64,000 bases of DNA from an uncultured Acidimicrobiaceae bacterium (GTDB lineage Bacteria > Actinomycetota > Acidimicrobiia > Spongiisociales > UBA5794). The notes beneath the pieces were generated by a model that had not been told where the DNA came from, did no database searches, and saw only the letters and a list, made by a program, of their open reading frames with translations. Both the position numbers and the translations under genes were made by a program. The stretch covers positions 102,701-166,700 of the forward strand of contig CAYQEC010000002.1 in NCBI GenBank assembly GCA_964416425.1, written 5' to 3'. Shown here piece after piece: positions 21,436 through 45,701 of this stretch. Each line of letters opens with the position of its first letter. Position 1 is the first letter of the stretch.

Positions 21436-22281
21436 ATGAACGTTCCGATCTCCTTCCTCTCCGACTTCGGCCGCGCCGACGAGTTCGTCGGCGTCGTGCA
21501 CGGCGTCATCGCCCGCATCGCCCCCGAGGTGCGCGTCGTCGACGTCGGCCACGACTTCCCCCGCGGCGACGTGCGAGCCGCCGCCCTCGGCCTGCTGCGG
21601 GCGATCCAGTACCTGCCCCAGGGTGTCGCCCTCGCCGTGGTCGACCCCGGGGTGGGCACCGAACGGCGGGCGCTGGCGGCCCGAACCGAATGGGGGACCC
21701 TGATCGGACCCGACAACGGCCTGCTCGCTCCCGCCGTCGCCATGGTGGGCGGCGCCGACCTGATCGTGGCGATCGAGAACCCCGAGTTGCGTCTCCCCGC
21801 CGAGGGCGCCACCTTCGCCGGGCGCGACCTCTTCGCACCGGCCGCGGCAGTGGTCGCCTCCGGGCAGGCGGCGATGGAGCAACTCGGCCCTGAGGTCGAC
21901 CCGAACACGGTGGTGCCGCTGATGCTCCCCCTCGTCGAGCGGGACGCCGGGACCCTGCACGGCGAGATCCTCTGGATCGACCACTTCGGCAACGCCCAGA
22001 CCAACATCTCGCCCGACGACCTGGGGGCGGCCGGCATCGCGCCCGGCAGCGAGGTCGTGGTCCGGATCGGCAGTGTCGAGTATCGCCTCACCTGGGTGCG
22101 GGTCTACGGCGAGGTGGAGCGGGGTGAGGGTCTGTTCCATGTCGACTCGTACGGTCAGATCGCCCTGGCGGTGCGGGAGGGTCGCGCCGACGAGGCGTTC
22201 CCGATCGCGGTGGGGACCACGCTCACGTTGCGGGGTCCCGGGACGCCGGCGGCCGAGCTTCAGAGCCCGTCGGCCAGTTGA
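21436..22281 (+). CDS. SAM hydroxide adenosyltransferase (DUF62/fluorinase-chlorinase superfamily)
   Basis: MNVPISFLSDFGRADEFVGVVHGVIARIAPEVRVVDVGHD... matches the conserved N-terminus of this family. Confidence 0.8.
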   Translation: MNVPISFLSDFGRADEFVGVVHGVIARIAPEVRVVDVGHDFPRGDVRAAALGLLRAIQYLPQGVALAVVDPGVGTERRALAARTEWGTLIGPDNGLLAPAVAMVGGADLIVAIENPELRLPAEGATFAGRDLFAPAAAVVASGQAAMEQLGPEVDPNTVVPLMLPLVERDAGTLHGEILWIDHFGNAQTNISPDDLGAAGIAPGSEVVVRIGSVEYRLTWVRVYGEVERGEGLFHVDSYGQIALAVREGRADEAFPIAVGTTLTLRGPGTPAAELQSPSAS

Positions 22282-22377
22282 AGTTGCACGACGAAGGCGC
22301 CGACGATGAGCAGCAGGAGCAGCAGCAGGACGAGGGCGGTGGCGGGTCGCATGGCGCGCCGGACGATAGTGGGACCG

Positions 22378-22667
22378 TGAACGACGCCCGCACGCTCCGG
22401 TTCGTCACCAGGGACGGGTGCGGCCGGTGCGCCGAATCCCTCGCCGCGATCCGGCGGGTCGCCACCCGGCTCGCGATCCCGGTCGTGGTGGAGGACGTCG
22501 ACGCCTCTCCGGACCTCTACGAGGCCTACACCGACCGGGTCCCGGTGGTGCTCGACCGGGGCGGGGGCGTAGTGGCCGAGGGGCGCCTCACCGGCCGGCA
22601 GGCCCTGTGGACCGTGCTCGCGGCCCGGATGCGACGGGGCCGGTCGCCGGGGACGCCGCAGGTCTAG
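22378..22667 (+). CDS. glutaredoxin/thioredoxin-fold family protein (CxxC)
   Basis: ...LRFVTRDGCGRCAESLAAIRRV... has CGRC in a glutaredoxin-like context. Start uncertain (GTG ~22378). The low-complexity acidic N-terminus of ORF 22278..22667 is doubtful. Confidence 0.5.
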
Positions 22668-22699
22668 AGCCCTCCGGCGGCCACTATCCTCCGCTCTCG

Positions 22700-23320
22700 G
22701 TGAAAGGCCCGATTCCCTCTGCCACGGTGGCGCGGCTCCCGGTGTACCTGCGGTGCCTCGGCGACCTCCCCACGACGCAGCCGACCTGCTCGTCGGAGCA
22801 GCTCGCCGCGATCGCCGGCGTCAACCCGGCCCAGGTGCGCAAGGACCTGTCCCACATCGACGCCAGGGGGGTGCGCGGCGTCGGCTACGGCATCGACGAG
22901 CTGCGCCGTGAGCTGCGCCGTGCCCTCGGCCTCGTCAAGAGCTACGCGGTGGCCATCATCGGCGCCGGCAACCTCGGCACCGCCCTCTCCAACTACCCCG
23001 GGTTCGCCGGGTGGGGATTCGAAGTGAAGGCGATCTTCGACGTCGATCCCTCCAAGGTGGGGGAGGAGGCCGACGGCCTGGTGGTGGAGTCCCTGGCGGA
23101 TCTCGAGAAGATCGTGGCCGAGCGATCCATCTCGATCGGGATCGTGGCGACGCCGGCCCATGCCGCCCAGGACGTCGCCGACCGGCTGACGCGGGCCGGG
23201 GTGCGCTCGATCCTCAACTTCGCCCCCGCCATCCTGCGCCGGGTCGACGGCGTCGAGGTGCGGCGGGTCGATCTCTCCACCGAGCTGCAGATCCTGGCCT
23301 ATCACCTGCAGCGCGACTGA
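22700..23320 (+). CDS. rex: redox-sensing transcriptional repressor Rex (NADH/NAD+ sensor)
   Basis: VKGPIPSATVARLPVYLRCLGDL... (winged-helix N-terminus), then Rossmann ...VAIIGAGNLGTALSNY..., C-terminal ...RRVDLSTELQILAYHL. GTG start at 22700 in frame with ORF 22418..23320. Confidence 0.8.
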   Translation: MKGPIPSATVARLPVYLRCLGDLPTTQPTCSSEQLAAIAGVNPAQVRKDLSHIDARGVRGVGYGIDELRRELRRALGLVKSYAVAIIGAGNLGTALSNYPGFAGWGFEVKAIFDVDPSKVGEEADGLVVESLADLEKIVAERSISIGIVATPAHAAQDVADRLTRAGVRSILNFAPAILRRVDGVEVRRVDLSTELQILAYHLQRD

Positions 23321-23394: not shown

Positions 23395-24711
23395 ATGCCA
23401 ACGCGCGTACTGATCCTCGGTGCCGCCGGACGTGATTTCCACGATTTCAACACGCTCTACCGCGGCCGTCCCGAATACGAGGTCGTCGGGTTCACCGCCA
23501 CCCAGATTCCCGACATCGGCGGCCGCCGCTACCCGCCGGAGCTGGCCGGACCGGGTTACCCGGACGGGATTCCGATCCACCCGGAGGACCGGCTCGAGCA
23601 GCTCATCGCGGAGCAGGCGATCGACCTCGTCCTCTTCGCCTACTCGGACGTCTCCCACGAGCACGTCATGCACCTCGCCGCCCGGGCCGTCGCCGCCGGC
23701 GCCTCATTCTCCCTGGCGGGCGACGCCGCCCTTATCCCGTCGTCGAAGCCGGTGGTGGCGGTAACCGCCACCCGGACCGGGAGTGGGAAGAGCCAGACGA
23801 GCCGCCGCATCCGGGGCATCCTCGCCGCCGCCGGGAAACGAGTCGCGGTGATCCGCCATCCGATGCCGTACGGTGACCTGCTGCGGCAGCGGGTGCAGCG
23901 CTTCGCCTCGTTCCAGGATCTCGTCGCGGCCGACGTCACGGTCGAGGAGCGGGAGGAGTACGAGCCGTACCTGCGCCAGGGTGCCGTCGTCTACGCCGGG
24001 GTCGACTACGAAGCCATCCTGCGCACCGCCGAGGAGGAGGCGGACGTGATTCTGTGGGACGGCGGCAACAACGACCTCCCCTTCTTCCGGACCGATCTCG
24101 CGCTGTGCGTCGTCGACCCGTTCCGGGCCGGGCACGAGCTGCGCTACTGGCCGGGAGAGGCCAACCTCCGGCGCGCCGACGTCGTCATCATCAACAAGGT
24201 GGACACCGCCCCGGCGGAGGGGGTCGAGCTGGTGCGCCGCAACGTGGCGGCGGCGGCTCCGGAGGCGGTGGTGATCGAGGCGGCGTCACCGATCACCGTC
24301 GAGCATCCGGAGCTGATCACCGGGAAGCGGGTGCTCGTGGTCGAGGACGGTCCCACCATCACCCACGGCGGCATGCCGGAGGGGGCCGGGGCGGTGGCGG
24401 CGCGCCGTCACGGGGCGGCCGACCTGATCGACCCCCGTCCCTTCGCCACAGGCTCACTCGCCGACGTCTACGCCGCCTACCCCCATATCGGTCCGGTGCT
24501 GCCGGCGATGGGATATGGCCACGAGCAGCTCGCCGAGCTGGCGGCGACGATCCGGGCCGCCGCCCCGGAGACGGTCGTGATCGGGACGCCGATCGACCTC
24601 GCTCGCATCGTCGACCTCGGCGATCTGCTCCGCACCAGGGTGTTCTACGAGCTGGAGGAAGTGGCCGGCGGTCCCACCCTCGAGCAGGTGCTGGGGCCGT
24701 TCCTCCGCTGA
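23395..24711 (+). CDS. cyclic 2,3-diphosphoglycerate synthetase (CPGS)-like protein
   Basis: MPTRVLILGAAGRDFHDFNTLYRG... and central ...VAVTATRTGSGKSQTS... P-loop-like segment, as in CpgS-family proteins. Confidence 0.6.
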   Translation: MPTRVLILGAAGRDFHDFNTLYRGRPEYEVVGFTATQIPDIGGRRYPPELAGPGYPDGIPIHPEDRLEQLIAEQAIDLVLFAYSDVSHEHVMHLAARAVAAGASFSLAGDAALIPSSKPVVAVTATRTGSGKSQTSRRIRGILAAAGKRVAVIRHPMPYGDLLRQRVQRFASFQDLVAADVTVEEREEYEPYLRQGAVVYAGVDYEAILRTAEEEADVILWDGGNNDLPFFRTDLALCVVDPFRAGHELRYWPGEANLRRADVVIINKVDTAPAEGVELVRRNVAAAAPEAVVIEAASPITVEHPELITGKRVLVVEDGPTITHGGMPEGAGAVAARRHGAADLIDPRPFATGSLADVYAAYPHIGPVLPAMGYGHEQLAELAATIRAAAPETVVIGTPIDLARIVDLGDLLRTRVFYELEEVAGGPTLEQVLGPFLR

Positions 24712-24745: not shown

Positions 24746-25270
24746 TCAGTCGCGGTCCTGTTCCTTCTCGTAGCGGTCGAGGGCCACCAGGAACATGAGG
24801 AACAGGATGAGCGACGCCACGGCCAGCCCGATGGCGGGGATCCGCATCTGGAAGGCGTTGAGGCCGGCGAGGTTGGAGGGCCGCAGCCCGCGCGGGGCGT
24901 AGACGACGAACAGCATCGAGCCCACCACCAGCCACCCGAAGACGGCGGCGCCGGTCACGAGGAAGGCGAGACGGCGCCCGAGATTGGTGGAGAGCACCAG
25001 GAAGCCGGATCCCACGAACGCCACCACCGCCACCACGGTGATGAGGATGCCCTTGGCGGCGACGGAGAACCCGGTGGGGTCGCCGGCGTCGTCGACCTGC
25101 CCGAAGACCTTCTCCCACGCATCGCCGGCGATGCTGCGCACCAGCGGGATGAAGGCCAGCACCGCCAGGACGAGCAATGTCAGCCCCAGCTTCTCGAGCG
25201 AGCTGAGCCCGCGCTCGTCCCGGACGATGGCAGCCAGGCGATCCGGCAGGCGGCGGGTGCAGCGCATCAC
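24746..25270 (-). CDS. small 4-TM membrane protein, last gene of the cytochrome b6/Rieske operon
   Basis: GTGATG start overlaps the stop of the upstream cytochrome c gene; hydrophobic. Confidence 0.5.
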   Translation of the reverse strand: MMRCTRRLPDRLAAIVRDERGLSSLEKLGLTLLVLAVLAFIPLVRSIAGDAWEKVFGQVDDAGDPTGFSVAAKGILITVVAVVAFVGSGFLVLSTNLGRRLAFLVTGAAVFGWLVVGSMLFVVYAPRGLRPSNLAGLNAFQMRIPAIGLAVASLILFLMFLVALDRYEKEQDRD

Positions 25271-26880
25271 AAGGACCGCTCGTAGGTGACGATGAGCTCG
25301 ATGTCGTCCCGGCTCAGGATCTCCCCGAACGCCGGCATGCCGCCCACGCCGCTGAGACCGTTGACCCCGTAGTGGGAATCGGCCTCGGCGCCGCGGATCA
25401 CGAAGGTGACGTGGTCCTCGACGTCGGGGAACTGGGTGATGGCCCGCCCGTCGGTGAGCGCCGGCGCCCAGGCCCCGGTCCCCGCCTCTTGCTCGAAGGC
25501 GACCCCGGCGCTGTAGCCGGCGGTGTGACAGCGGGCGCAGTAGGCGTTGAACAGACCCACGGCGCGGGTGGCGTCGGCCAGCTCGAGGCCGGTGCGGGTG
25601 GCGACCTCCTCGAAATCGACGTCCCAGGACCGATCCTGCAGCGCCTTCTCGAGGAAGGCGATTCCCTCGTTGGCGCTCTCCAGGAACCGGTCCTGCCGTT
25701 CGCTGATGACCTCGAGCTGGAGGTGGGTGGTTTCGAGCTCCTGGTAGAAGTGGTGGGCCGAGTCGAGGTCCGCCACGGGGCGGCCCCGCTCGTCGCTCAT
25801 CGTGAAGGCGTTGTCCGGCGCCAGTTCGAGAGCGAACCGGTCGCTGGTGGTGGGCACGACCTCGAGGGTACGGTTCCCGTTCTCGTCGACCGATTCCTGC
25901 ACGGCGCGGGTCGTCACCGTGTCGAACGTGATGGCGGCATCGGCGGTGAGGGCCTCTTCGGCGGCGTCGGTGAGGCCGTCACGGTCGCGGTCCGGGCCGG
26001 GATTGTCGCAGCTCGTCCCCACCAGCTCGGCCGAGGCCTCGGTGCAGGTTCCGTCGCCGGAGAGCAGGGCGGCGATCTCGTCCGGCATGTCCTGGATCGT
26101 GGCGTACTGGCTCGGGGCGTCGAGGATGTCGTCCCGCGCCGCGTTCTGCTCGACGAGCCGCTTGCCGATCGTCTCCTCGGCGTTCTCGATCCGCTGCAGC
26201 GCCAGGGAGACGGCACCTTCGATCTTGTCGAGCGCCGCGCTCTGCGGGACCTGGATGCTCTTCAGGTAGGCCACCACCTGGTCGATCTGCTGCATCGTCA
26301 TCGAGCCGCCGCCGGCGAGCCCGGCCGCCGGCATCGGGGTGCCGTGGCGGCCGTAGGTGATCCAGTGCCGCACCTCGTCTTCGGTGTAGCGGAAGAGCAC
26401 GTCGTTGATCGACGGCGCCACCCACGACGTGTCGAGGCCGGAGCGGGCCTCGATGAAGGCGGCTCCGCCGCCTCCGCCGTCGGCGCCGTGGCACACCGTG
26501 CACTCGAAGAGCTTCCACCACCGGAGGCCCTCCTCGAGGTAGTTCTCCTCGACCTGCTGGGCCGCCTCGGCCTGGCGGTGCGACTCCCCGACGAAGTAGA
26601 CGGGGAGCAGGATGGCGAGCACCGCGGCGGCGATCGCCGCCGCCGAGAGCACGTGGGTGAGGCGGGTGGTTTCCAGCGCTTCGTCGTCGTCGTAGGGGTC
26701 GAGGTTCGGCGGAGGCGTCTCGGGGGGACGCCGACGCCGCCGGCTGGTGATGACGAGAAATCCCAGACCCAGCAGTAGCACTGCGACGGCGAGGATCAGC
26801 ACCACCGATCCGAGGCCGACGTTGCTGGGCCCGGCCGGCGTGGCGGGCTCGGCGGTGGCGAGGAGGGGCAGTGGGGTCAC
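25267..26880 (-). CDS. membrane-anchored dihaem c-type cytochrome (cytochrome c subunit of the Rieske/cyt b complex)
   Basis: Two CXXCH motifs (CTVCHG, CARCHT); N-terminal TM helix; GTG start at 26880 overlaps the Rieske stop (GTGA). About 537 aa, with a 250-aa insert between the two haem domains. Confidence 0.75.
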   Translation of the reverse strand: MTPLPLLATAEPATPAGPSNVGLGSVVLILAVAVLLLGLGFLVITSRRRRRPPETPPPNLDPYDDDEALETTRLTHVLSAAAIAAAVLAILLPVYFVGESHRQAEAAQQVEENYLEEGLRWWKLFECTVCHGADGGGGGAAFIEARSGLDTSWVAPSINDVLFRYTEDEVRHWITYGRHGTPMPAAGLAGGGSMTMQQIDQVVAYLKSIQVPQSAALDKIEGAVSLALQRIENAEETIGKRLVEQNAARDDILDAPSQYATIQDMPDEIAALLSGDGTCTEASAELVGTSCDNPGPDRDRDGLTDAAEEALTADAAITFDTVTTRAVQESVDENGNRTLEVVPTTSDRFALELAPDNAFTMSDERGRPVADLDSAHHFYQELETTHLQLEVISERQDRFLESANEGIAFLEKALQDRSWDVDFEEVATRTGLELADATRAVGLFNAYCARCHTAGYSAGVAFEQEAGTGAWAPALTDGRAITQFPDVEDHVTFVIRGAEADSHYGVNGLSGVGGMPAFGEILSRDDIELIVTYERSL

Positions 26881-27752
26881 AGGCAGGAAGGTCCTTGCGG
26901 GTAGGAGGCGGTCTTGTGGTGGGCGCGGGCGGTTTGAAAGATGGTGCCCGTGTTGATGATGAGGTCCCCGGCGTCGTTGACCGCCACCTCGAAACGGTCC
27001 ATGTTGCGAGGGGCCGGGCCGGCCTCGTACTCGCCGTGGAAGTTGTACCTGGATCCGTGGCAAGGACACTCGAATCCCTGTGAGGAAGTGCACTCCGGCA
27101 CCCGGCAGCCGAGGTGGACGCAGCGTTGCCACAGGGCCATCACACCCGGTTCGACCCCGCCCCCGGCGAGCACCGGGAGGCCTTCGAAGGAGCTGTCGGG
27201 AACGTCCTTCTCGTCCATGACGACCAGCCAGGACTGGGCGGGGGGGATGAACTTGGGGATGAGGGTGCCGTCGTCCTGCACGATCTCGTCGCGGAGGGCG
27301 ACGAGGTTGCCGGCGTTGATCGGGGTGCCGAAGCCTCCCTTCAGCTTGGGCCAGAGGAAGGAGAGCATGCCCAGGCCGAGTGAGGCGAAGAACGCCCCGG
27401 CGAAGAGCCCGAGGCTTGCCCGGTTGAGGAACTTGCGGCGGGTGACCCCCATCTCGGCGGCGGAGACCGGGATGCGGGGGATGGCGGCCGCCGGCTCGTC
27501 GCCGGGAAGCGGCGCCGCCGCGGCGGGGACACTCTCGGCAGCCTCCGCTGCGGCGGCGGGAGCGTCGTCCGCGGCGGGTTCCAGGGCCACGGGCTCCGGG
27601 GCGACGTCGGGCGTGGCGTCGGCGGCGGCGGGCTCGAACTCCCCGACGACAGGCCCGGTCGGGCCGCGGCGCCACGCGACGGTGAAGACCGCCACCGCCA
27701 GCAGTGCGGCGGCCGAGATCAGGGCGATCGCAAAGATGGTGGTGGCACTCAT
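26877..27752 (-). CDS. Rieske [2Fe-2S] iron-sulfur protein of a bc/b6f-type complex
   Basis: CVHLGC...CPCHGS Rieske boxes; N-terminal TM helix; Ala/Pro-rich linker. Confidence 0.85.
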   Translation of the reverse strand: MSATTIFAIALISAAALLAVAVFTVAWRRGPTGPVVGEFEPAAADATPDVAPEPVALEPAADDAPAAAAEAAESVPAAAAPLPGDEPAAAIPRIPVSAAEMGVTRRKFLNRASLGLFAGAFFASLGLGMLSFLWPKLKGGFGTPINAGNLVALRDEIVQDDGTLIPKFIPPAQSWLVVMDEKDVPDSSFEGLPVLAGGGVEPGVMALWQRCVHLGCRVPECTSSQGFECPCHGSRYNFHGEYEAGPAPRNMDRFEVAVNDAGDLIINTGTIFQTARAHHKTASYPQGPSCL

Positions 27753-29113
27753 CAGAAGTCGAAGAAGACGCCGTCGACCCAGGGGAACGTGAAGCTGAAG
27801 CCGGGACCCCGGAAGAACGAGCCGTAGATGGTGAGCACCGCCGCCGCCATCAGGAAGAACGTGAAGAGCATGATCGCCAGCTTCCGGTCGGAGGGCCGCG
27901 ACGACGGGTTCTTGTCGAGGTAGGGGATGAGGGCGATCCCGACGAGGCCGAAGGTCGGGATGATCACACCGGCGACCTGGGGGTCGAAGTAGGAGAGCAG
28001 CTCCTGGAGGCCGAGGAAGTACCAGGGCGCCTTGGACGGGTTCGGCTGCTGGTTGAAGTTGGCGAACTCGAGCAGCGGGGCGTTGACGAACACCGAGAAG
28101 ATGATGAGGCCGGCCGTTACCACCATGAGGGCCACGAATTCGATGGCGAGCAGGTGGGGCCAGGTGTTCACCTTGTCGGTGGGCTCCTTCTTGACCTGCT
28201 GGATCGCTCCCGCCTTGACGACGGTGAGGAGGCGTTGGGTCCGTACCTCACCGGGGGGTGGTGCCGTCGCCGTCGCCACGCCCCCGGCGGGTGCGGCGGC
28301 TGCGGGGGCGGCGGGAGTGGCGGGAGCGGCCGGAGTGGCTGCGGGGGCGGGGGTCTCGGCCGGTGGGGGTGGTGCCGTCGCGGCGGGCGCCGCGGGTTCG
28401 GGGGCGGCTGCGGGGGCGGCTGTGGGGGCTCCTGCCACGCGTTGTCGGGCCTTCATGGCGCGTTCGAGGAGGGGGACGGGGACGCCGTACTGCTCGGATT
28501 CGGCGGCGAGGTCCCGTCCGGCGGCGGCGGGAGCGGCCGGAGTGGCTGCGGGGGCGGGGGTCTCGGCCGGTGGCGGTGGCGTCGGGGTCCCGGCCGGTGC
28601 CGTCGCGGCGGGCGTCGCGGGTTCCGGAACGGAGGGAGTCTCCTCGGCCCTCAGCTCGGCGAGCACCTCGCCGACGTCTCTGCCCTCGGCCATGGCCCGT
28701 GCCTCGGCAGCCCGGAGCAGGAGGTGCTCCGGGAGCTTGGACCCCTCCAGCCCGCCGGTGGCGACCTCGGGAAGCGCCCCGACGGACTCGGGTTCGGGTA
28801 CGGCCGGCGCCGACGCGGTCTCGCCCTTCATCTCGGCGAGGACCTCCTCGACGTCGCGTCCCTCGGCCTTGGCGCGGGCCTGGGCGGAGCGGCGCAGGAT
28901 GTGGTCGGGCAGCCCGGCGAGTTCCAGGTCGCCGCTGATCGTGTGGTGGACCGGCTCCTCCTCCGGGGTCGCGGCGGGCTCCTCCGGGGTCGGCGTGAGC
29001 TCAGGCGCCGCCTCGCCCTTCATCTCGGCGAGCACTTCTTCCACGTCGCGCCCTTCGGCCTTGGCGCGGGCCTCGGCGGCGCGCCGGAGCAGGTGCTCGG
29101 GAAGGTCAGCCAT
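27752..29113 (-). CDS. cytochrome b6f subunit IV-like (cytochrome b C-terminal domain) with N-terminal triple about 30-aa repeat extension
   Basis: C-terminal ...WPHLLAIEFVALMVV...PNPSKAPWYFLGLQELLSYF...PYLDKNPS... matches PetD/cyt b C-terminal domain (PEWY variant APWY). N-terminal 300 aa contain 3 copies of LPEHLLRRAAEARAKAEGRDVEEVLAEMKGE plus PA-rich linkers. Confidence 0.8.
   Translation of the reverse strand: MADLPEHLLRRAAEARAKAEGRDVEEVLAEMKGEAAPELTPTPEEPAATPEEEPVHHTISGDLELAGLPDHILRRSAQARAKAEGRDVEEVLAEMKGETASAPAVPEPESVGALPEVATGGLEGSKLPEHLLLRAAEARAMAEGRDVGEVLAELRAEETPSVPEPATPAATAPAGTPTPPPPAETPAPAATPAAPAAAGRDLAAESEQYGVPVPLLERAMKARQRVAGAPTAAPAAAPEPAAPAATAPPPPAETPAPAATPAAPATPAAPAAAAPAGGVATATAPPPGEVRTQRLLTVVKAGAIQQVKKEPTDKVNTWPHLLAIEFVALMVVTAGLIIFSVFVNAPLLEFANFNQQPNPSKAPWYFLGLQELLSYFDPQVAGVIIPTFGLVGIALIPYLDKNPSSRPSDRKLAIMLFTFFLMAAAVLTIYGSFFRGPGFSFTFPWVDGVFFDF
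28646..29113. repeat. three about 90-bp in-frame direct repeats (spaced about 190 bp) encoding the LPEHLLRRAAEARAKAEGRDVEEVLAEM module
   Basis: DNA copies at about 28646..28735, 28826..28915 and 29023..29113 (ctcggcgag[c/g]ac...ggcc[tt/at]ggc...gagcagg...). Also a duplicated gcggccggagtggctgcgggggcgggggtctcggccggtgg at about 28320 and about 28536. Confidence 0.7.
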
Positions 29114-29128
29114 GGGCGCCTCCCCCGA

Positions 29129-29911
29129 TCACAGCGGCCCCGAGATCCCGCCGTCCTTACGCACCCGCCAGAAATGCACCGCCATGAACACGACGATGAT
29201 GAAGGGCAGGAAGAGGACATGCAGCACATACCAGCGCAGCAACGTGTCCGGGGTGATCTGCACCCCGCCGATAAGGGCGAACGACACCTGTTGACCGAAC
29301 AGGGGCGTGTACGAAGCCATGTTCGAGCCCACCGTCACCGCCCACAACGCCAGCTGATCCCAGGGCAGCAGGTACCCGGTGAAGGAGAGCAGCAGGGTGA
29401 GCAGGAGCAGGATGACCCCGACGACCCAGTTGAACTCGCGGGGCGGCTTGTAGGCGCCGTGGTAGAAGACCCGGGCCATGTGGAGGAACACGGTCAGCAC
29501 CATGAGGTGGGCTCCCCACCGGTGGATGTTCCGCACCAGCTGGCCGAAGGCGACGTCGGTCGAGAGCGCCTGCACGTCCGTGAAAGCCGCCGGCGACGTC
29601 GGGTGGTAATAGAACATGAGGAAGATGCCCGTGATGGTGAGGAGGATGAAGAGGAAGAAGCTCAACCCTCCGAGGCACAGCGTGTAGGAGAGACGCACCG
29701 CGTGCCGCTTCACCTTCACCGGGTGGAGGTGGTAGAGCACGTTGTTCATGATCACGTAGGAGCGGTTGCGGGGGGAATCGGAGTAGCCGTGGCGGAACGG
29801 CGAGCCGGGACGGAAGATGCTCGACCACGCCTGGCTGGAGCGAACGTGCTCCCCGGCGTTGGCGAGCCGTTCCCGCAGCCCCACCTTCCCGCTTCCGTTT
29901 CCGTTTGCCAC
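29129..29911 (-). CDS. cytochrome b6 (cytochrome b N-terminal, haem-binding domain)
   Basis: 260 aa; four conserved His in helices B and D (...[23 protein letters not shown]..., ...[28 protein letters not shown]), typical of PetB. Confidence 0.85.
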
Positions 29912-29962
29912 CTTGTCGTCCTTCCCACGGATCGGCGCCGCGGCCGGCCAAGATAGTCCCCG

Positions 29963-30409
29963 CTACCAGCGCATCCCGTACATGTACCCGTTCTTGAAGT
30001 CCCGCTGCCCCGAGTCGTACTCCCAGGGAGCGTCGTCGTACCGGCCGGCCTCGTCCGCCACCGATCCGGCGAATTTGCCGAGGGTGATCACGCCGGTCGG
30101 GCACCGATCGATGCAGAGGGCGCAGCGGGTGCAGGCGTCCTCGTCGACGAGGAAGAAGCCACGGTTCTCCGGCTTGTCGCCCGGATCGGAGACGTTGGTG
30201 GCATCGGTGATGGCGTCGAGCGAGAGGTAGTGGATGCACTTCCAGGGGCAGATGTCGACGCATCCCTCACAGAGGATGCACTCCGACTGGTCGATGTGCA
30301 GGAACTGCTTCGGCTTGACCGCACTCTGCAGGAATGAGCCGTCGACCTCAGTGAGCTCGTAGTCGTCCCGGGTCGGCACCAGGTCGGTCCACACGTCGGA
30401 CTTCGCCAC
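29963..30409 (-). CDS. 2x[4Fe-4S] ferredoxin-domain protein in the cyt b6 operon
   Basis: CILCEGCVDICP and CTRCALCIDRCP motifs; GTG start with GGGAGG RBS. Confidence 0.75.
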   Translation of the reverse strand: MAKSDVWTDLVPTRDDYELTEVDGSFLQSAVKPKQFLHIDQSECILCEGCVDICPWKCIHYLSLDAITDATNVSDPGDKPENRGFFLVDEDACTRCALCIDRCPTGVITLGKFAGSVADEAGRYDDAPWEYDSGQRDFKNGYMYGMRW

Positions 30410-30412
30410 CGG

Positions 30413-31021
30413 CTACCTCCCTTCCCTGCGCAACGGGCGCCCGTAGGCGGACACCGGCTCCGGGACGGGGGTGGGGACGGTGGGCTCCCGGGCCGCCCTG
30501 CCCTGCCAGCGCACCATGGTGAAGGCGACGGCCGCGAGGGCTCCGGCGGCGTAGCCCCCCGACACCATGTCCTTGAGGGCGGCGAACGAGATCGAGACCT
30601 CGTTGCCGAGCACGAGCCAGCTCGGGATGGTGAAGGCGATCTTCTGCGGCGTCCACTCCCACTGGGCCTGGGTCAGGGTCAGCCACTGATTGGGGACGAT
30701 GCCGAACATGATGATCATCAGCGCGGCGAACAGCGCCGCGCCCAAGGCGGCGCGGGCCCAGGTCATCTGCCGCTGGTAGAGGAAAGCGAGGGCCGTGCCT
30801 CCGATCGCCAGTACGACGCCGCCGACCGAGACGATCTGACCCAGCAGCGACCATAGCCAACCGCGCGGAATCGAGGGGTAGATGTCCCGTCCCAGGTTGT
30901 CGGTGACGGGCAGGGCGGTGAAGTGGGCCCACAGGGCGCCGAGCACCGCGGCGCTCACGCCGGCCATCATGGCGGCGAGGCCCAACCTCAGGTATCGCTT
31001 GTGCGTCTCGGTCTGCAGCAT
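30413..31021 (-). CDS. hypothetical 4-5 TM membrane protein, first gene of the cyt b6 operon
   Basis: MLQTETHKRYLRLGLAAMMAG... taken as start of ORF 30413..31162; the stop is 3 nt from the ferredoxin start. Confidence 0.45.
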   Translation of the reverse strand: MLQTETHKRYLRLGLAAMMAGVSAAVLGALWAHFTALPVTDNLGRDIYPSIPRGWLWSLLGQIVSVGGVVLAIGGTALAFLYQRQMTWARAALGAALFAALMIIMFGIVPNQWLTLTQAQWEWTPQKIAFTIPSWLVLGNEVSISFAALKDMVSGGYAAGALAAVAFTMVRWQGRAAREPTVPTPVPEPVSAYGRPLRREGR

Positions 31022-31338
31022 CGTCCTCGCTCGCCACGCCGGTCGCGTCGGCGGCATTCTAAGCAACCGAGTCTGGTGCGGTGACGGGTTCTGCGGGATG
31101 TCGCGAGGCCGATCGCGCCCGGCCGGAGCCCGCCGACCGGCCCCGGAACCGGGTGCCGGCAAGGGTGCGGGTGGCGCCGGAAGCTGCCCGACCCCGGCGC
31201 CTGCCCCGCCGGAGCGAGACCCCGGGGCCGGCGTCGCCGATCCTTCCCGAATCGTGTGTCCGGCCGCGGCCCTTTGGCTAGGCTGCCCCCGCCGCCGAGA
31301 GGTGGGGCGGCATCGGCGCAGAGGGAAGGGTGGAGGAC

Positions 31339-33271
31339 GGTGACCTCCGAGACGGCAACCGACACGGTGGGCGCCGCGGCCGAATCAGGGGCGGGGATGG
31401 CGGCGCCGCTCGTCGTCCGTCTCCACCTCGTCTGCTCGGTCGGCTTCCTCGTCGCCGGTAGCATCCTCGCCGCCCTCGCTGCCCTTCAGCTCGTGGCGCC
31501 GGACCTGCTCGGCGGCAGCCCACTCCTCGGCTACGGGCGCCTCGTTCCCGTCTCCCTCCACTTCGTCATCTACGGCTGGCTCACACTCGGGTTGCTCGGA
31601 GCCCTCTACCTGGCGGTGTCCGCCGGCGCCGGCGTCCCGCTGCGCAACCCGGGAACCGCTCGCATCGGGTTCGTGCTGCTCTCGCTGGGGTACCTCGCCG
31701 GCGGTGTCGCCATCGGCCTCGGCTTCTCGGAAGGCCGCCGCTACCTGGAGGCGCCGCTGTGGGCCGACGCCGTCACCCTGCTCGGCCTCCTGATCGCCGC
31801 CGTCGTCGTCACCCGCACCGTGGCGGCCCGGACGCGGGAGCTGGGTGTGGTGCAGTGGTACGCCGTCGCCGCCGTGTGGTGGCTGGTCCTCCTCCACATC
31901 GTGGGCAACGTTCCCGGGATCGAGGGTGTCAACGGGGCATTGCAGGCCGCCTTCTACCGCGCCGGCCTCACCGGACTCTGGCTCGCTTCCGCCGGGGTCG
32001 GAGCCGTCTACTCGCTCCTGTCCCGCCTCGGAGGCCGTCCCCGCCTCGTACCCACCCGCCTCTCCCTCATCGGGTTCTGGACCCTCGGCACGGCCTGGGC
32101 CCTCACCGGCTCCAACGAGCTCACCTACGGGCCGGTCCCGGACTGGTTCCAGACGATCGGCGTCGTGTTCTCGATCGCCCTGCTGGGGGCGGTGGCGGCG
32201 GTCATCACCGACGTCGTGATCGCGTTGCGGGGGCGCTGGGCCGCCGCCGTCGCCCATCCCTCCGCCCGGTTCCTGGTCGCAGGCCTCGCCCTCTTCGGGT
32301 TGCTGCCGGTGCTCGGCCTGCTGGAGGCGCTGCGGGCCTCCAGCGCCGTGGTCGGGCTCACCGACTGGGTCGCCGCCGTCGAGTGGGTCGGCGTGTTCGG
32401 CGCCTTCTCGCTGTGGCTCTTCGCCGTCGGCTACGACGCCCTTCCCCGGCTGCGGGGCCGCGCCGCCCCCGCCTGGCGGGCCCGGCTCCACCTCCAGGGC
32501 ACCCTGCTGGGTCTCGGTCTCGCGGTCGGCGCCATGCTGGTGGGAGCGGTGCAGGGCGGCCTCACCTGGCTCGGCGGCGCCAACTCGCAGTCGTTCGCCG
32601 CCGCCGGAGAGGGATTCCGCAACAGCCTCGAGCCGATGGCCGGGTTGCGGGTGGTGCGTTTCGCCGGCATCGCCGTCTTCGCCGTTGCCCAACTCGGCTA
32701 CCTCGGCAACGTGCTCTTCCGCCGCGCCGAGCCGATCACGGTGGAGGCCGCCGCCGACGAGGAGATCGACGAGGAGCTGGTGCTGGCGGCGCCGCCGTCG
32801 TGGAACCGGCTCCGCGCCGGCGTCGCAGGGGTGTTCGCCGTCGTGCTCCTGCTCGGCCTGGTGCTGCCGTCGCTCGACTCCGCCGACCGCAGTGCCACGG
32901 CCCTCGCCGACACCGCTCGGTACTACCCGAGCGACAGCACCGCGGCGGCCGGGCGCGAGGTGTACCTACGGGAGGGGTGCGGCTACTGCCACACCCAGCA
33001 GGTGCGGCCCATCGTCACCGACGTCGGGTTGGGGGCGGTGAGCGTGGCGGGCGACTTCGCCTCCGAGTCACCCGTCCTGCTCGGTGTCGAGCGCATCGGC
33101 CCCGACCTGATGCACGCCGGCTCGCGCAGCCCGACCAACTCCCAGACCTGGGTCGTCGGCCACCTCCAGGATCCCCGCCGGGATCGGGCCTGGTCGATCA
33201 TGCCCTCCTACGATTCGCTGTCGTCCACCGACCTGTGGGCGCTCGCCGCCTACCTCGAGTCGCAGAAGTGA
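31339..33271 (+). CDS. CcoN-like (cbb3 oxidase subunit I-like) membrane domain fused to CcoO/FixO-like monohaem cytochrome c domain; apparently ligand-deficient
   Basis: ...LQLVAPDLLGGSPLLGYGRLVPVSLHFVIYGW... and ...YGPVPDWFQTIGVVFSIALL... align with CcoN helices II and VII. C-terminal ...EGCGYCHTQQVR...ERIGPDLMHAGSR...WVVGHLQDPR...SIMPSY is a CcoO haem domain. Start uncertain (GTG ~31339 or ATG ~31394). Confidence 0.6.
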
Positions 33272-33275
33272 TCCG

Positions 33276-34367
33276 ATGAACGAATTGCTCGAACGCGTGT
33301 CGCAGGACCTCGGGGTCCCCGTCGAACTGCTGCGCCGCGCCGCCGCCGCCAGGGCGGCCGCCATGGGCGACACCGCCGAGGCGGTGGTGGGGCGCTGGGC
33401 GGGCGAGGAGCCTACGGGCGAGGAGCCTACGGGCGAGGAGCCTACGGGAGCGGAGCCGACGGGCGAGGTGCCGGCCGCCGCCTCCCCGCCGCCACAACCC
33501 GCCGCGACAGAAACGCCGGCGGAGGGGTCGGCCCCGGCCGCCGAGCCGGCGGGGCTGCCCGAACACCTGGTGCGGCGCACCGCGGCGGCTCGCGCCAAAC
33601 GGGAAGGGCGCCCCCTCGAGGAGGTGCTGGCCGAGATGGGCCTCGAAACCGGGGCTCCCCCAACCCCGGCCGCCGCGCCCACCCCGGCCGCCGCGCCCGC
33701 CCCGTCCGCCATGGAGCCGGCGCCGCCGGAGGCGTCACCGGACGCGACCCCGGCCCCCGCCGAGGAGCCTGCCGCGGCGCTCCCCGAGCCACCGGCCCCA
33801 CCCGACGACGAGCCGGCCGCCTCCCTCTTCGGTGGTTTCCCGCGCTGGCTGGCCGCCTCGTTCGTGCTGTTGCCGCTCATCGCCCTCGTCTACGCCCTCG
33901 TCTCCCCCAACGGGCCCGACTGCGGCACCTCGGGCAGGCTCGCCATCGACCCGGTCACCGGTGTCGGCCAGAACTGCGACGGCAGCGCCTTCGGGACCTC
34001 GAGCACCGACTTCTTCACCAGCGGCATGGAGCTGTTCACCGGCGCCACCTGCAACGTCTGCCACGGCGACCAGGGGCAGGGCGCGGTGGGCCCCGCCTTC
34101 GCCGGCGGGGCGGTGCTCGTCACCTTCCCGAGCGGGAGCTGCGCCGACCACGTCGAATGGGTGAGGGTCGGCACCGACGGCTGGCCCGACCCCACCTACG
34201 GCGCCACCGCCAAACCCGTCGGGGGGAGCGGCGCCAAGATGCCGGCCTTCGGAAACCAGCTCAGCGACGAGGAGCTGCGCAGCGTGGTGCTCTACGAACG
34301 GGTCGCCTTCGGGGGCGAGCCGTTGGCGGAAGCCGAGGCCGACTGCGGCCTCGTCCCCGCCGAGTGA
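33276..34367 (+). CDS. membrane-anchored monohaem cytochrome c with N-terminal repeat-module extension
   Basis: CNVCHGDQGQGAVGPAF haem motif; TM helix WLAASFVLLPLIALVYALV; N-terminal VPVELLRRAAAARAAAMG... and LPEHLVRRTAAARAKREGRPLEEVLAEMGLE repeats. Confidence 0.7.
   Translation: MNELLERVSQDLGVPVELLRRAAAARAAAMGDTAEAVVGRWAGEEPTGEEPTGEEPTGAEPTGEVPAAASPPPQPAATETPAEGSAPAAEPAGLPEHLVRRTAAARAKREGRPLEEVLAEMGLETGAPPTPAAAPTPAAAPAPSAMEPAPPEASPDATPAPAEEPAAALPEPPAPPDDEPAASLFGGFPRWLAASFVLLPLIALVYALVSPNGPDCGTSGRLAIDPVTGVGQNCDGSAFGTSSTDFFTSGMELFTGATCNVCHGDQGQGAVGPAFAGGAVLVTFPSGSCADHVEWVRVGTDGWPDPTYGATAKPVGGSGAKMPAFGNQLSDEELRSVVLYERVAFGGEPLAEAEADCGLVPAE
33406..33465 (+). repeat. 15-bp tandem repeat x4 encoding (EEPTG)n
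   Basis: ggcgaggagcctacg repeated; in frame inside the cytochrome c gene. Confidence 0.7.
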
Positions 34368-34416
34368 CCCTGGGTCCCGTCCGGCGCCGCTCCACCGCCC
34401 GGTAGCCTCTGCTCCC

Positions 34417-35682
34417 GTGAGCACCACGCCCGACGTCCTCGTGATCGGTGGCGGCCCCGCCGGCGCCGCCACCGCCTTCTGGCTTGCCCGCGCCGGGGCG
34501 TCGGTGCTCGTCGCCGAGAAGCGCGGCTACCCGCGGGAGAAGACCTGCGGCGACGGCCTTACCCCGCGGGCGATCAAGCAGCTCGCCGACATGGGCTTCG
34601 ACTTCGACCTACCCGAGCTGCACCGCATCGTCGGGCTGCGCGCCTACGTGGGGGAGCGCCGGCTGGAGATGCCGTGGCCCCGCCACACCGTCTATCCCGA
34701 CTGGGGGGCGGTGATCCGGCGCTCCGACCTCGACCTCCAGGTCGCCCGGCTCGCCGAGAAGCAGGGGGCGGTGATCCGCCAGCACACCGAGGCGGTCCCG
34801 GTGATGGAGGCCGGCCGCCTCGCCGCGGTGGAGCTGCGGACGAAGAACGGCACGGTGGGGAGCGAGGTGGAGGTGGTGCGTCCCCGTCTTGTCGCCGTCG
34901 CCGACGGCTCGCTGTCCCGCTTCGGGCGCCCCCTCGGCGTCCGGCGCCGCCGCGACTACCCGTTCGGGCTCGCCCTCCGCGGCTACTACGCCAGTCCCAA
35001 CTCCCGGGACGGGTACCTCGAGAGCCAGCTCGACATCCGGGACGGCGCCGGGCGGTCGCTTCCCGGGTACGGCTGGGTGTTCCCGCTCGGCGACGGGGAG
35101 GTCAACGTCGGCGTCGGCGTCGTCTCCACCTTCCGGGGATGGAAGGACGTCGGGACCTCTCGCCTGCTGGAGGCTTACCTCGCCTCGCTCCCCGGTCACT
35201 GGGAGATCGGTCCCGGCTCCGAGACCCGGGCACCGATCGGTGGCAAGCTGCCGATGGCGATGTCGGTGGGCCCGCGGTTCGGGGCCAACTGGGTGGCCGT
35301 GGGAGATGCCGCCGGGGCCGTCAACCCCTTCAACGGGGAGGGCATCGACTACGCCTACGAGACGGGCCGGATGGCGGCCGGCTCCCTCCTCGAGGCGCTC
35401 GCCGCCGGCGATCCCGGGGCGCTCGTCGGCTATTCGCGGGCGATCGACGCCGCCTACGCCGACTACCACCGGGTGGCCCGCCTCCTGGTGATGGCGATCG
35501 GTAACCCCCCGGTGATGCAGGCCCTGACCCGGGTAGGGATCCACTCCCGGCCCCTCATGGAATGGGCGCTCAAGGTGATGGCCAACTTGCTGGAACCCGA
35601 GGAGCGGGGGACGTCGGAGTGGGTGTACCACCTCATCGAACGCCTCGTCGCCCTCGGTCCCGACCCGCTCATCCGCCGCTGA
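34417..35682 (+). CDS. geranylgeranyl reductase family FAD-dependent oxidoreductase (MenJ-like)
   Basis: DVLVIGGGPAGAATAFWLARAGASVLVAEKR (GxGxxG FAD fold) ...KTCGDGL... is typical of geranylgeranyl reductases. Confidence 0.85.
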   Translation: MSTTPDVLVIGGGPAGAATAFWLARAGASVLVAEKRGYPREKTCGDGLTPRAIKQLADMGFDFDLPELHRIVGLRAYVGERRLEMPWPRHTVYPDWGAVIRRSDLDLQVARLAEKQGAVIRQHTEAVPVMEAGRLAAVELRTKNGTVGSEVEVVRPRLVAVADGSLSRFGRPLGVRRRRDYPFGLALRGYYASPNSRDGYLESQLDIRDGAGRSLPGYGWVFPLGDGEVNVGVGVVSTFRGWKDVGTSRLLEAYLASLPGHWEIGPGSETRAPIGGKLPMAMSVGPRFGANWVAVGDAAGAVNPFNGEGIDYAYETGRMAAGSLLEALAAGDPGALVGYSRAIDAAYADYHRVARLLVMAIGNPPVMQALTRVGIHSRPLMEWALKVMANLLEPEERGTSEWVYHLIERLVALGPDPLIRR

Positions 35683-35780
35683 GAGACCTCGATTCCGACC
35701 GCGCGTTCCTTAGCCGATGCCCCCTCGCTAGGCTCGAAACAGGTCCGGTCCGGGCCGTCCGGGAGGGCCGTTCCCGCGTT

Positions 35781-35798
35781 TTGCGAGCGGGGTCGCAA
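35781..35798. promoter_or_regulatory. Rex-operator-like inverted repeat TTGCGAGCGGGGTCGCAA upstream of nuoA
   Basis: 6-bp arms TTGCGA/TCGCAA with 6-bp spacer, 36 bp upstream of the nuoA start; resembles the Rex box TTGTGAA-n4-TTCACAA with one change per half-site. A third half-site TGCGAC lies at 35809..35814. Confidence 0.35.
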
Positions 35799-35833
35799 TT
35801 CCTAGTCTGCGACATCGGAAGGAGTCCGCCGAG

Positions 35834-36262
35834 ATGACGCTCGCTGCCTATCTGCCGGTCGCCCTGCTGTTCCTCGTCGGGGTGGGCTTCGCGGTGGTGG
35901 CACTGACGCTCTCACGGAGGATCGCTCCCCACAATCCGACCCCGGAGAAGCTGGCGCCCTACGAATGCGGCATCGTCCCGTTGCAGGAGCCGGCCGAGCG
36001 CTTCCCGGTCAAGTTCTACCTCGTTGCCATGCTGTTTGTGATCTTCGACGTCGAGCTGGTCTTCCTCTTCGCCTGGGCCGTCCGCTTCGTGGACTTCGGC
36101 TGGGCCGGTATCGGCGCCATGGCGATCTTCGTGGTGTTGCTCGCCGAGACCCTCTTCTACGTGTGGAAGCGCGGCGCCCTCGACTGGAACGTCGCCCGCC
36201 GCGACCGCTACCGCCGGGTCGTGGCCCCCGAGGGTGTGCCATCCACCCGGGAGGCTGCTTGA
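35834..36262 (+). CDS. nuoA: NADH-quinone oxidoreductase subunit A
   Basis: ...YECGI...[12 protein letters not shown]... is the conserved NuoA motif. Confidence 0.9.
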
Positions 36263-36732
36263 TGGCCGGCACCGCCGAGCCGCCCGGCTTCCTCCTCACC
36301 ACCCTCGACAAGGGAGTCAACTGGGCCCGGACCCGCTCGATGTGGGGGGCCGTCTTCGGCCTCGCCTGCTGCGCCATCGAGATGATGGCCACCGGCGCCG
36401 CCCACCACGACCTCGCCCGTTTCGGGATGGAGGTGTTCCGGGCCTCGCCGCGGCAGGCCGACCTGATGATCGTCGCCGGCCGGGTGTCGCAGAAGATGGC
36501 CCCCGTCCTCCGCCAGGTCTACGACCAGATGGCCGAGCCGAAATGGGTGATCTCGATGGGTGCCTGCGCCTCGACCGGGGGCATGTTCAACAACTACGCC
36601 GTCGTCCAGGGGGTCGATCAGGTGGTGCCCGTCGACATCTTCGTGCCGGGATGCCCGCCCGGGCCGCAGTCCCTCATGCACGGGATCCTGATGCTGCAGG
36701 AGAAGATCATGGCCGGCGAGATCAAGCATTAG
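36262..36732 (+). CDS. nuoB: NADH-quinone oxidoreductase subunit B
   Basis: [10 protein letters not shown]...GACASTGG...PGCPP motifs (N2 cluster ligands); ATG overlaps the nuoA stop. Confidence 0.9.
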
Positions 36733-36742
36733 AGGAAGCGAC

Positions 36743-40645: not shown

Positions 40646-40658
40646 CGAGGCCGGTGAC

Positions 40659-44140: not shown

Positions 44141-44151
44141 GGTAAGCGCGG

Positions 44152-45697: not shown

Positions 45698-45701
45698 GGG
45701 C

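Follow-up and report, generated by a model that had tools for sequence, protein, structure and literature searches.

A b6-type Rieske/cytochrome b operon of Acidimicrobiia encoding a dedicated ferredoxin and two additional membrane proteins

Layout and conservation of the seven-gene operon

The window analysed here is a stretch of 64,000 nucleotides from an uncultured Acidimicrobiaceae bacterium, in which seven coupled genes on the minus strand (24746-31021) encode a split cytochrome b complex with a Rieske protein, a dihaem cytochrome c, a ferredoxin and two membrane proteins, the last two termed M1 and M2. An earlier note, made from the sequence alone, had described these genes, and the open reading frames (ORFs), domains and motifs given there were all found, with junctions ranging from -4 to +51 nt. 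Likewise, the dedicated dicluster ferredoxin and the two extra membrane proteins claimed in that note are encoded in the operon, as seen from their ORFs, the Fer4 families and the predicted transmembrane helices (TM). The features of the operon are listed below in the order of transcription.

30413-31021, minus strand: M1, a basic membrane protein (pI 10.4), first gene of the operon; ORF of 202 aa with 3-4 predicted TM (3 by hydropathy)
29963-30409, minus strand: dedicated 2x[4Fe-4S] ferredoxin; 148 aa, two CxxCxxCxxxCP motifs, Pfam Fer4 families
29129-29911, minus strand: cytochrome b6; 260 aa, PF00033 (E 8e-49)
27752-29113, minus strand: subunit IV (SUIV); 453 aa, PF00032 on residues 351-432, KAPWYF
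28640-29113, minus strand: helical repeat at the N-terminus of SUIV, three copies of ~31 aa (LPEHLLRRAAEARAKAEGRDVEEVLAEM); regular-expression matches at 29104, 28912 and 28735
26877-27752, minus strand: Rieske [2Fe-2S] protein; 291 aa, PF00355, CVHLGC...CPCHGSRY
25267-26880, minus strand: membrane-anchored dihaem cytochrome c; 537 aa, PF13442 and PF00034, CTVCH at 127 and CARCH at 448
24746-25270, minus strand: M2, a basic membrane protein, last gene of the operon; 174 aa, 4 predicted TM

From M1 to M2, the genes are separated by 3, 51, 15, -1, -4 and -4 nt, the last value being the overlap of the M2 gene with the cytochrome c gene. Shine-Dalgarno-like GGAGG runs are located upstream of the ferredoxin, b6 and SUIV genes. 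A consensus scan of the minus strand within the cluster found no terminator-like site, albeit such a scan is uninformative in DNA of 70% GC.

The gene order was examined in 80 loci, namely the best 80 of at least 593 matching stretches in a one-genome-per-species collection, almost all from metagenome-assembled genomes (MAGs) of Acidimicrobiia, by tblastn with the window proteins as far as each contig extends. The order M1-ferredoxin-b6-SUIV-Rieske-cytochrome c-M2 was found in 80 of the 80 loci, and the retention of the same seven genes in the same order in all of them implies a cluster far beyond chance. Identity across the loci was 59-94% for the ferredoxin, 68-97% for b6, 41-74% for the Rieske protein, 34-57% for cytochrome c, 31-81% for M1 (upstream of the ferredoxin in 80/80 loci) and 44-66% for M2. 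The conservation of the ferredoxin is thus similar to that of b6 and far above that of the Rieske protein and cytochrome c, a pattern typical of a tightly packed subunit. Neither M1 nor M2 matched any Pfam family even at E<=10 or any NCBIfam model at its threshold.

More distant contexts were provided by seven members of the ferredoxin family that are 30-56% identical to the window ferredoxin, and the seven-gene unit was kept in six of the seven (L081, L082, L084, L085, L086 and L088). All of the seven products were pairwise homologous between the window and the distant operons, M1 being marginal. Identities between the window and L081, L082 and L084 were 68-70% for b6, 57-61% for the SUIV core, 39-46% for the Rieske protein, 36-41% for the ferredoxin, 36-40% for M2 (E ~1e-6 against the last gene of the distant operons) and 27-30% for cytochrome c; M1 matched a protein of 115-151 aa encoded at the same position with E values of 0.004-0.014. 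The genes around the unit vary among these lineages. A separate CcoN lacking the metal ligands is found together with CcoO in L081, an aa3/caa3 oxidase in L084 and Ccm genes in L085, Ccm/ResBC being among the respiratory neighbours in the distant lineages. In L088, an aquatic metagenome contig, the unit is flanked by a gene of the geranylgeranyl-reductase (GGR) family and by nuo genes, the latter directly after M2. The assembly collection records the ferredoxin of L088 (P0494) in 365 blocks, and L088 apparently represents a very abundant aquatic lineage. Since the neighbours change and the unit stays, we regard the unit as the inherited complex III module of these lineages. Judging from these sequence comparisons, the core of b6, SUIV, Rieske protein and dihaem cytochrome c is inherited as one unit with M1, M2 and the ferredoxin. 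No conventional qcrCAB was seen in the window or in any of the loci, this statement covering the loci and the window and not whole genomes.

The earlier note had suggested a distinct variant of the Rieske/cytochrome b complex, unless this very gene order turned out to be the annotated standard of the lineage. The suggestion stands in so far as the arrangement corresponds to no annotated or characterised qcr operon, although it is a property of the whole class and not of this genome. The seven-gene order is indeed the standard of the lineage (80/80 loci), and thus no oddity of this genome, but it is not annotated as a qcr operon.

The typical operon was also detected in MAGs labelled Kiloniellaceae, Gammaproteobacteria or Acidobacteriota (L022, L035, L045, L046, L048, L055, L056 and L059), in which the ferredoxin is 69-72% identical. 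These off-lineage labels probably reflect mis-binned contigs or mis-labelled MAGs, not transfer.

Core subunits and their placement among known Rieske/cytochrome b systems

The cytochrome b is split, PF00033 and PF00032 being on separate ORFs 15 nt apart. In a pairwise alignment with Mastigocladus cytochrome b6 PetB (1vf5_A), the four haem-ligand His (bL, bH) of the window b6 aligned with those of PetB, and Cys79 in LCLGG aligned with Cys35 of PetB, the residue to which haem ci (also termed haem cn) is covalently bound. Cys79, which lies in a CxGG motif, is therefore the predicted attachment site of haem ci. The pattern T[LF]CLGG was found in 77 of the 80 loci and in the distant operons L081, L082 and L084. 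Among solved chains, those of cyanobacterial/chloroplast b6 were the best matches to the window b6 (163-167 bits), while mycobacterial/corynebacterial QcrB scored ~77-84 bits. Among the NCBIfam models, b6 scored 308 with ExtP (cut-off 290), 218 with cytochrome b6 PRK03735 (cut-off 325) and 115 with QcrB_actin (cut-off 500). The separation from the unsplit QcrB of Actinomycetia, which the earlier note had drawn, is thus borne out (115 vs 500 for QcrB_actin; ~83 bits for QcrB chains vs 166 bits for b6).

The window b6 starts ~44 residues before PetB (alignment from residue 75) and ~53 residues before the ExtP model (from residue 54). This N-terminal extension is as conserved as the haem-binding core (0.88 for residues 26-74 vs 0.89), residues 1-74 are strongly basic (pI 11.5), and the known topology of b6f places the extension on the cytoplasmic side. 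SUIV consists of a C-terminal PetD-like domain with 3 TM and a long cytoplasmic N-terminal extension. Its Qo motif reads KAPWYF in 68 of 72 loci as well as in L081, L082 and L084, where b6f has PEWY, and its score with the NCBIfam ExtQ model, 59.8 bits, falls under the cut-off of 150.

The Rieske protein is composed of an N-terminal TM, an Ala/Pro linker, an internal Tat-like motif TRRKFL and a second TM. The cluster-binding boxes CVHLGC and CPCHGSRY are present in 64-65 of 66 loci and the 'S-Y' signature in 65 of 66. This signature has been taken as that of a high-potential (>260 mV) Rieske protein (Kao and Hunte, 2014; PMC4122944). The best NCBIfam models for the Rieske protein were of the PetC type, under cut-off, and no ExtO model was among its five matches. 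The cytochrome c bears 2 TM at its N-terminus and two CxxCH motifs in 56 of 60 complete homologues. An acidic insert of ~220 aa (residues ~210-435) with no domain match separates the two haem domains, and the counterparts in the distant operons are shorter (198-403 aa).

Based on the motifs and the score with the ExtP model, the complex is most readily placed among the b6-type complexes as a member of the APWY clade. This clade comprises split cytochromes b with CxGG and was found in δ-Proteobacteria, Chloroflexi, Nitrospirales, Planctomycetes, deep-branching Firmicutes and Actinobacteria; as of 2014, none of its members had been characterised, and a reverse operation was suggested (Kao and Hunte, 2014; PMC4122944). 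Since the same authors already listed a split cytochrome b for Ilumatobacter coccineum (Acidimicrobidae) and for Rubrobacteridae, the split cytochrome b of Acidimicrobiia is not new, and both the core type and its presence in Acidimicrobiia have been known from sequence since 2014. The proposal in the earlier note that the complex is closer to those of Bacillus, heliobacteria or cyanobacteria did not hold, given APWY as the Qo motif and the Geobacter-type ExtP (308 bits) as the highest-scoring family model. The searchable literature and the Protein Data Bank (PDB) yielded no account of the seven-gene architecture, the dedicated ferredoxin, the b6 extension, M1, M2 or the pairing with ligand-less cbb3-like genes (see below), albeit an earlier mention in subscription literature is possible.

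The Geobacter proteins ExtO/ExtP/ExtQ, which belong to the APWY clade, share with the window complex a split cytochrome b with an SUIV-like subunit, APWY, CxGG and a score with the ExtP model above cut-off. On the other hand, the partners in Geobacter are multihaem cytochromes with no ferredoxin (PMC5877670), whereas a dihaem cytochrome c, a ferredoxin, M1 and M2 are found here. Furthermore, the motif is LCLGG here instead of WCMGG usual for the APWY clade, and the conserved basic b6 extension of ~50 residues is present only here when compared with ExtP. The ext cluster contains the multihaem cytochromes ExtM/N/S and a porin (PMC5877670). We rejected membership in the Geobacter Ext (selenite/tellurite) module, as only ExtP passes, ExtQ fails, and neither an ExtO match nor multihaem cytochromes or a porin were found.

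The cyanobacterial/chloroplast b6f complex resembles the window complex in the four-helix b6 and three-helix SUIV, in the aligned haem-ci Cys and four His, and as the best solved homologue. It differs in possessing PEWY, cytochrome f and PetG/L/M/N, in contrast to APWY, a dihaem cytochrome c and no small Pet genes in the operon. Besides, the ferredoxin partner of b6f is a soluble plant-type [2Fe-2S] protein, whereas the one here is an operon-encoded 2x[4Fe-4S] protein, and the quinone here is probably menaquinone. True b6f identity was rejected on account of APWY in place of PEWY, the dihaem class I cytochrome c and the absence of small Pet genes from the operon.

In Bacillus, SUIV is fused to its cytochrome c. 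The b6c complexes of Bacillus and heliobacteria (QcrABC, PetCBDA) are likewise of Gram-positive bacteria, oxidise menaquinol and comprise split b6/SUIV with haem ci, but they carry PDWY or PEWY (PMC4122944) and no ferredoxin, M1 or M2. QcrCAB, the bcc complex of the bcc-aa3 supercomplex of Actinomycetia, which belong to the same phylum, has in common with the window complex a dihaem membrane-anchored cytochrome c and a Rieske protein with an extra N-terminal TM and an internal Tat-like motif, and in neither is there a sign of a soluble cytochrome c carrier. The actinobacterial QcrB is, however, unsplit (~540 aa), carries PDWY and lacks the haem-ci Cys. Membership in QcrCAB was rejected by NCBIfam scores far under the cut-offs (115/500 for QcrB, 21/275 for QcrA and 23/200 for QcrC) and by the split of the b subunit.

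The complexes of anammox bacteria (Kuenenia) are similar to the window complex in that a Rieske/b6-type core is combined with a cytoplasmic FeS-bearing redox subunit and a high-potential Rieske protein is paired with menaquinone (PMC12954380, PMC5600118). The anammox subunit is a large FAD/NAD(P)-binding protein with multihaem/HAO-like partners, in contrast to the plain dicluster ferredoxin of 148 aa in aerobic-type neighbourhoods described here. Because the extra redox protein has no nucleotide-binding domain, membership in the anammox type was rejected and the resemblance is functional only.

Ferredoxin, divergent cbb3-like genes and a proposed mechanism

The ferredoxin is acidic (pI 4.3) and possesses neither a signal peptide nor a TM; it is thus regarded as cytoplasmic. 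Searches of Pfam and NCBIfam found only Fer4-type domains and no nucleotide-binding domain. More than 2000 homologues are 70-94% identical to the window ferredoxin, those with names being mostly of Acidimicrobiia. A profile search among 1.8 billion representatives delimited a narrow family of 25 clusters with E values below 1e-30, many of which are fragments, with generic Fer4 proteins below. The family comprises three subfamilies, nearly all named members of which are of Actinomycetota. Across 123 sequences of the three subfamilies, the eight cluster Cys, Cys58, Trp56, Asp52, Phe86, Asp89, Arg95 and Arg102 are invariant, Cys58 being a ninth invariant Cys within CPWxC.

No solved relative beyond generic (poly)ferredoxin domains was found in a PDB search. 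The structure model of the ferredoxin predicted by AlphaFold2 (AF2) had a predicted local distance difference test (pLDDT) value of 48 with 73 sequences, and a pLDDT of 68 and a predicted template modelling score (pTM) of 0.62 with 123 sequences. When the PDB was searched with the model by Foldseek, only the dicluster core of ~80 residues was matched (E>=0.005, template modelling score ~0.33), the matches being FwdF, NdhI, PscB, PsaC and chains of oxalate oxidoreductase, while the extensions at both termini are peculiar to this family, as is the invariant Cys58. PsaC, PscB and NuoI/NdhI carry the same 2x[4Fe-4S] core docked on the cytoplasmic face, albeit all of their matches to the window ferredoxin are weak. 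With the NCBIfam NuoI model, the ferredoxin scored 37 bits against a cut-off of 113, and the true nuoI of the window is at 44146-44841. In the source annotations, the ferredoxin is called '4Fe-4S binding protein' or misnamed NuoI or 'formate hydrogenlyase subunit 6'. Apparent fusions of the ferredoxin with M1 or b6 (P0170, P0172, P0187, P0188 and P0169) were rejected as frameshifted or run-on gene calls.

Genes for proteins related to cbb3 oxidase subunits diverge from the operon, with the following features.

31022-31339, no strand assigned: intergenic region separating the operon from the cbb3-like genes; presumably a shared promoter region, suggested only by the conserved head-to-head layout
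31340-33271, plus strand: CcoN-CcoO fusion homologue; PF00115 (E 1e-28) and PF02433 (E 3e-23)
33276-34367, plus strand: CcoP-like monohaem cytochrome c; 363 aa, PF13442, CxxCH at 259, TM 192-210

The ORF of the CcoN-CcoO homologue opens at 31256, and the GTG start at 31340 was chosen from the Shine-Dalgarno-like run preceding it. CcoN/CcoO-like and CcoP-like genes are divergent from the operon in all loci whose upstream DNA is long enough. In the alignment to Pseudomonas stutzeri CcoN, none of the six His ligands (H60 and H347 of haem b; H345 of haem b3; H207, H257 and H258 of CuB) nor the cross-linked Tyr251 was retained in the CcoN part (H207A, H257N, H258E, H345V, H347W and Y251W), so that the ligands of haem b, haem b3 and CuB are lost. 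No His is conserved in this 12-TM part among 26 homologues. On the other hand, the haem c domain of the CcoO-like part is intact, C575xxC578H579 and M649 being conserved at >=96% in the same homologues. The CcoN-like protein scored 116 bits with TIGR00780 (cut-off 583) and does not qualify as a cbb3 oxidase, and the separate CcoN of the distant L081 (1193-2740, minus strand) is likewise ligand-less. The protein thus has the appearance of a catalytically dead oxidase that has been retained as a putative cytochrome c scaffold. In L088, the CcoP-like cytochrome is kept but there is no CcoN/CcoO-like gene within 7 kb upstream of the ferredoxin, implying that the scaffold is dispensable.

The repeat of ~31 aa (LPEHLLRRAAEARAKAEGRDVEEVLAEM) in three copies at the N-terminus of SUIV recurs in two copies at the cytoplasmic N-terminus of the CcoP-like protein (33276-33650, plus strand), and no meaningful Pfam match to it was found at E<=10. 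A hidden Markov model of the repeat matched the N-termini of SUIV, CcoP-like and separate CcoO-like proteins in most loci, examples of the last being those of L040 (4686-5510, minus strand), L051 (4462-5295, minus strand) and L029 (4705-5622, minus strand). A repeat common to SUIV, CcoO-like and CcoP-like proteins suggests that the assemblies encoded by the two divergent operons may be physically linked, and points to a possible supercomplex or a cytoplasmic partner shared by both.

We consider the chance about even that the product of the operon is the menaquinol:cytochrome c oxidoreductase (complex III) of Acidimicrobiia and of related deep-branching Actinomycetota, with the ferredoxin bound at the cytoplasmic side. 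The ferredoxin would then be a permanently bound subunit on the cytoplasmic side (n-side), comparable to PsaC, PscB and NuoI/NdhI, and, being acidic, would dock electrostatically on the basic conserved N-terminal extension of b6. Its clusters would come within electron-transfer distance of haem ci/bH and provide the low-potential chain with a port to the cytoplasm. Electrons could pass this port in either direction. In the input direction, reduced cytoplasmic donors would deliver electrons via the bound ferredoxin and haem ci to menaquinone at Qi, whereas in the output direction, electrons from quinol bifurcation at Qo would reach an acceptor of low potential in the cytoplasm, a route that has been proposed for the anammox complexes. 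The direction is not fixed by the sequence, and input is slightly favoured, because the neighbourhoods are respiratory and of the aerobic heterotroph type, the conserved haem-ci Cys speaks for continued use of Qi, and electron entry is energetically easy. The combination of an S-Y Rieske protein with menaquinone would give a large bifurcation span, and thus the output model is allowed as well. The high-potential chain may continue to the c haems on the neighbouring dead cbb3 scaffold and from there to a true oxidase. That the complex is a ferredoxin-wired b6-type enzyme that exchanges electrons at haem ci and also forms a supercomplex with the dead cbb3 scaffold through the shared repeats seems unlikely to us.

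Cytoplasmic redox subunits on Rieske/cytochrome b complexes are not without precedent. Two Rieske/cytochrome b complexes of anammox bacteria possess cytoplasmic NAD(P) oxidoreductase subunits and a high-potential Rieske protein, and bifurcation to NAD(P)H has been proposed for them (PMC12954380). Short cytochromes b co-occur with FeS/NAD(P) proteins (Dibrova et al., PMC5600118), and cytochromes b fused to 4Fe-4S or flavin modules were listed by Kao and Hunte (PMC4122944). Moreover, a long-standing proposal for b6f is that haem cn accepts electrons from ferredoxin on the n-side, in the role of a ferredoxin:quinone reductase (PMC5600118).

Several points weigh against the ferredoxin as a bound subunit of a forward complex III. 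The subunit status of the ferredoxin, M1 and M2 is argued from sequence, and the conserved synteny fits an assembly factor or a soluble carrier too. The distant ferredoxin P0166 (L087) is not beside a b6 gene. The AF2 model of the ferredoxin is moderate (pLDDT 68) with its extensions unmatched, and menaquinone is what we take to be the quinone of these organisms. The potential rule for the S-Y signature has not been validated for the APWY clade, for which a reverse running was argued by Kao and Hunte (PMC4122944). As ExtOPQ of Geobacter are without a ferredoxin (PMC5877670), the core evidently works without one.

The operon may alternatively encode an ordinary forward complex III of the b6c type, the ferredoxin being an assembly or maturation factor (for haem ci or the Rieske cluster), a redox sensor or a soluble carrier. 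We regard this as doubtful, although synteny alone cannot separate a subunit from a dedicated assembly factor, the haem-ci complexes of Firmicutes, cyanobacteria and Geobacter (ExtOPQ) need no bound ferredoxin, P0166 occurs away from any b6 gene, and the invariant Cys58 could suit sensing or thiol chemistry. An assembly factor is rarely as conserved as a catalytic subunit, whereas the ferredoxin (59-94%) exceeds the Rieske protein (41-74%); its position between M1 and b6 (gaps of 3 and 51 nt) is fixed across subfamilies that share only 30-40% identity; and the charge complementarity with the operon-specific extension of b6 points to stable docking. Some Acidimicrobiia oxidise Fe(II), which would accord with a complex running in reverse, in which a periplasmic or high-potential donor feeds the c haems and the Rieske protein, and electrons are driven uphill by the proton-motive force to menaquinone and, via the bound ferredoxin, to low-potential acceptors. 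In APWY, the Glu/Asp that accepts protons in the Qo motif is replaced, the clade has been tied to reverse operation in Geobacter metallireducens (PMC4122944), and a ferredoxin in the cytoplasm is a logical destination for electrons driven uphill. However, we find reverse running highly improbable, as all Acidimicrobiia carry the operon, among them heterotrophic lineages that are abundant in aquatic habitats (L088), its neighbours (nuo, aa3/caa3 oxidase and cytochrome c maturation genes) are those expected of a main forward complex III, and a conventional qcrCAB was not seen in the window or the loci, to which the search was confined.

The least probable of the alternatives, in our view, is that M1 and the ferredoxin constitute a separate anchor/FeS membrane module for the cbb3-like assembly or another partner and are linked to the Rieske/b6 genes only genetically. 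The two genes are promoter-proximal, form the most tightly coupled pair (a gap of 3 nt in the window; overlapping starts in L081, L082, L086 and L088) and lie opposite the cbb3-like genes on the other side of the divergent promoter region. Nevertheless, they stay with b6-SUIV-Rieske where the cbb3-like genes are absent or replaced, namely in L084 (aa3-type), L085 (Ccm) and L088 (no CcoN), and are therefore associated with the Rieske/b6 core rather than with the cbb3-like genes.

Soils, sediments, sponges, fresh water and sea water all harbour abundant Acidimicrobiia, in which the whole flow of electrons from quinol to oxygen would pass through this complex. An operon-encoded ferredoxin facing the cytoplasm on a b6-type complex offers a genetically fixed system for testing the purpose of haem ci and the exchange of the low-potential chain with cytoplasmic carriers, which is relevant to cyclic electron flow in chloroplasts and to the anammox complexes. 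If the ferredoxin-wired enzyme is real, it would provide the first hard-wired example of an activity, either ferredoxin:quinone or quinol-to-ferredoxin bifurcating, over which there has been a long debate in the case of haem cn of b6f. Cultured members of the class, such as Ilumatobacter, Iamia and Acidimicrobium, exist, and the question is thus testable. The operon also sets traps for annotation: the NCBIfam equivalog would give b6 the name 'selenite/tellurite reduction ExtP', NuoI is a frequent misnomer of the ferredoxin, and surveys of metagenomes are likely to count the ligand-less CcoN-CcoO among the high-affinity cbb3 oxidases, which would overstate the microaerobic capacity of these lineages.

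Respiratory genes surrounding the operon

The cluster in the window is flanked on one side by Glrx-like and Rex genes and on the other by a GGR/MenJ-like gene, after which nuoA-N is located. The GGR-family FAD protein is encoded at 34368-35682 (plus strand), directly 3' of the CcoP-like gene, and is possibly a MenJ-like reductase of the menaquinone side chain. The nuoA-N operon for complex I follows at 35732-47588 (plus strand), and the region constitutes a respiratory gene island. No sigma-70-like match was obtained at 31022-31339 in a promoter consensus scan, which is again uninformative at 70% GC.

Past the M2 gene and convergent to it, a protein of 438 aa with weak similarity to CobW/HypB/UreG (G3E GTPase) is encoded at 23395-24711 (plus strand). 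Proteins 73-75% identical to it were found in three loci, L005 (13184-14491), L006 (14733-16034) and L012 (13218-14525), and it may be a metallochaperone. Because rex adjoins the operon, the Rex operator TTGTGAAN4TTCACAA was sought with up to 3 mismatches; the sole match in the window, at 1289, is at chance level, and none was near the operon. The Glrx-like (DUF836) gene at 22278-22667 and the gene for the redox-sensing repressor Rex at 22418-23320, both on the plus strand, lie just past M2 in the window, and the same pair was also detected past M2 in two distant lineages, L084 (12370-13369) and L085 (11966-12901).

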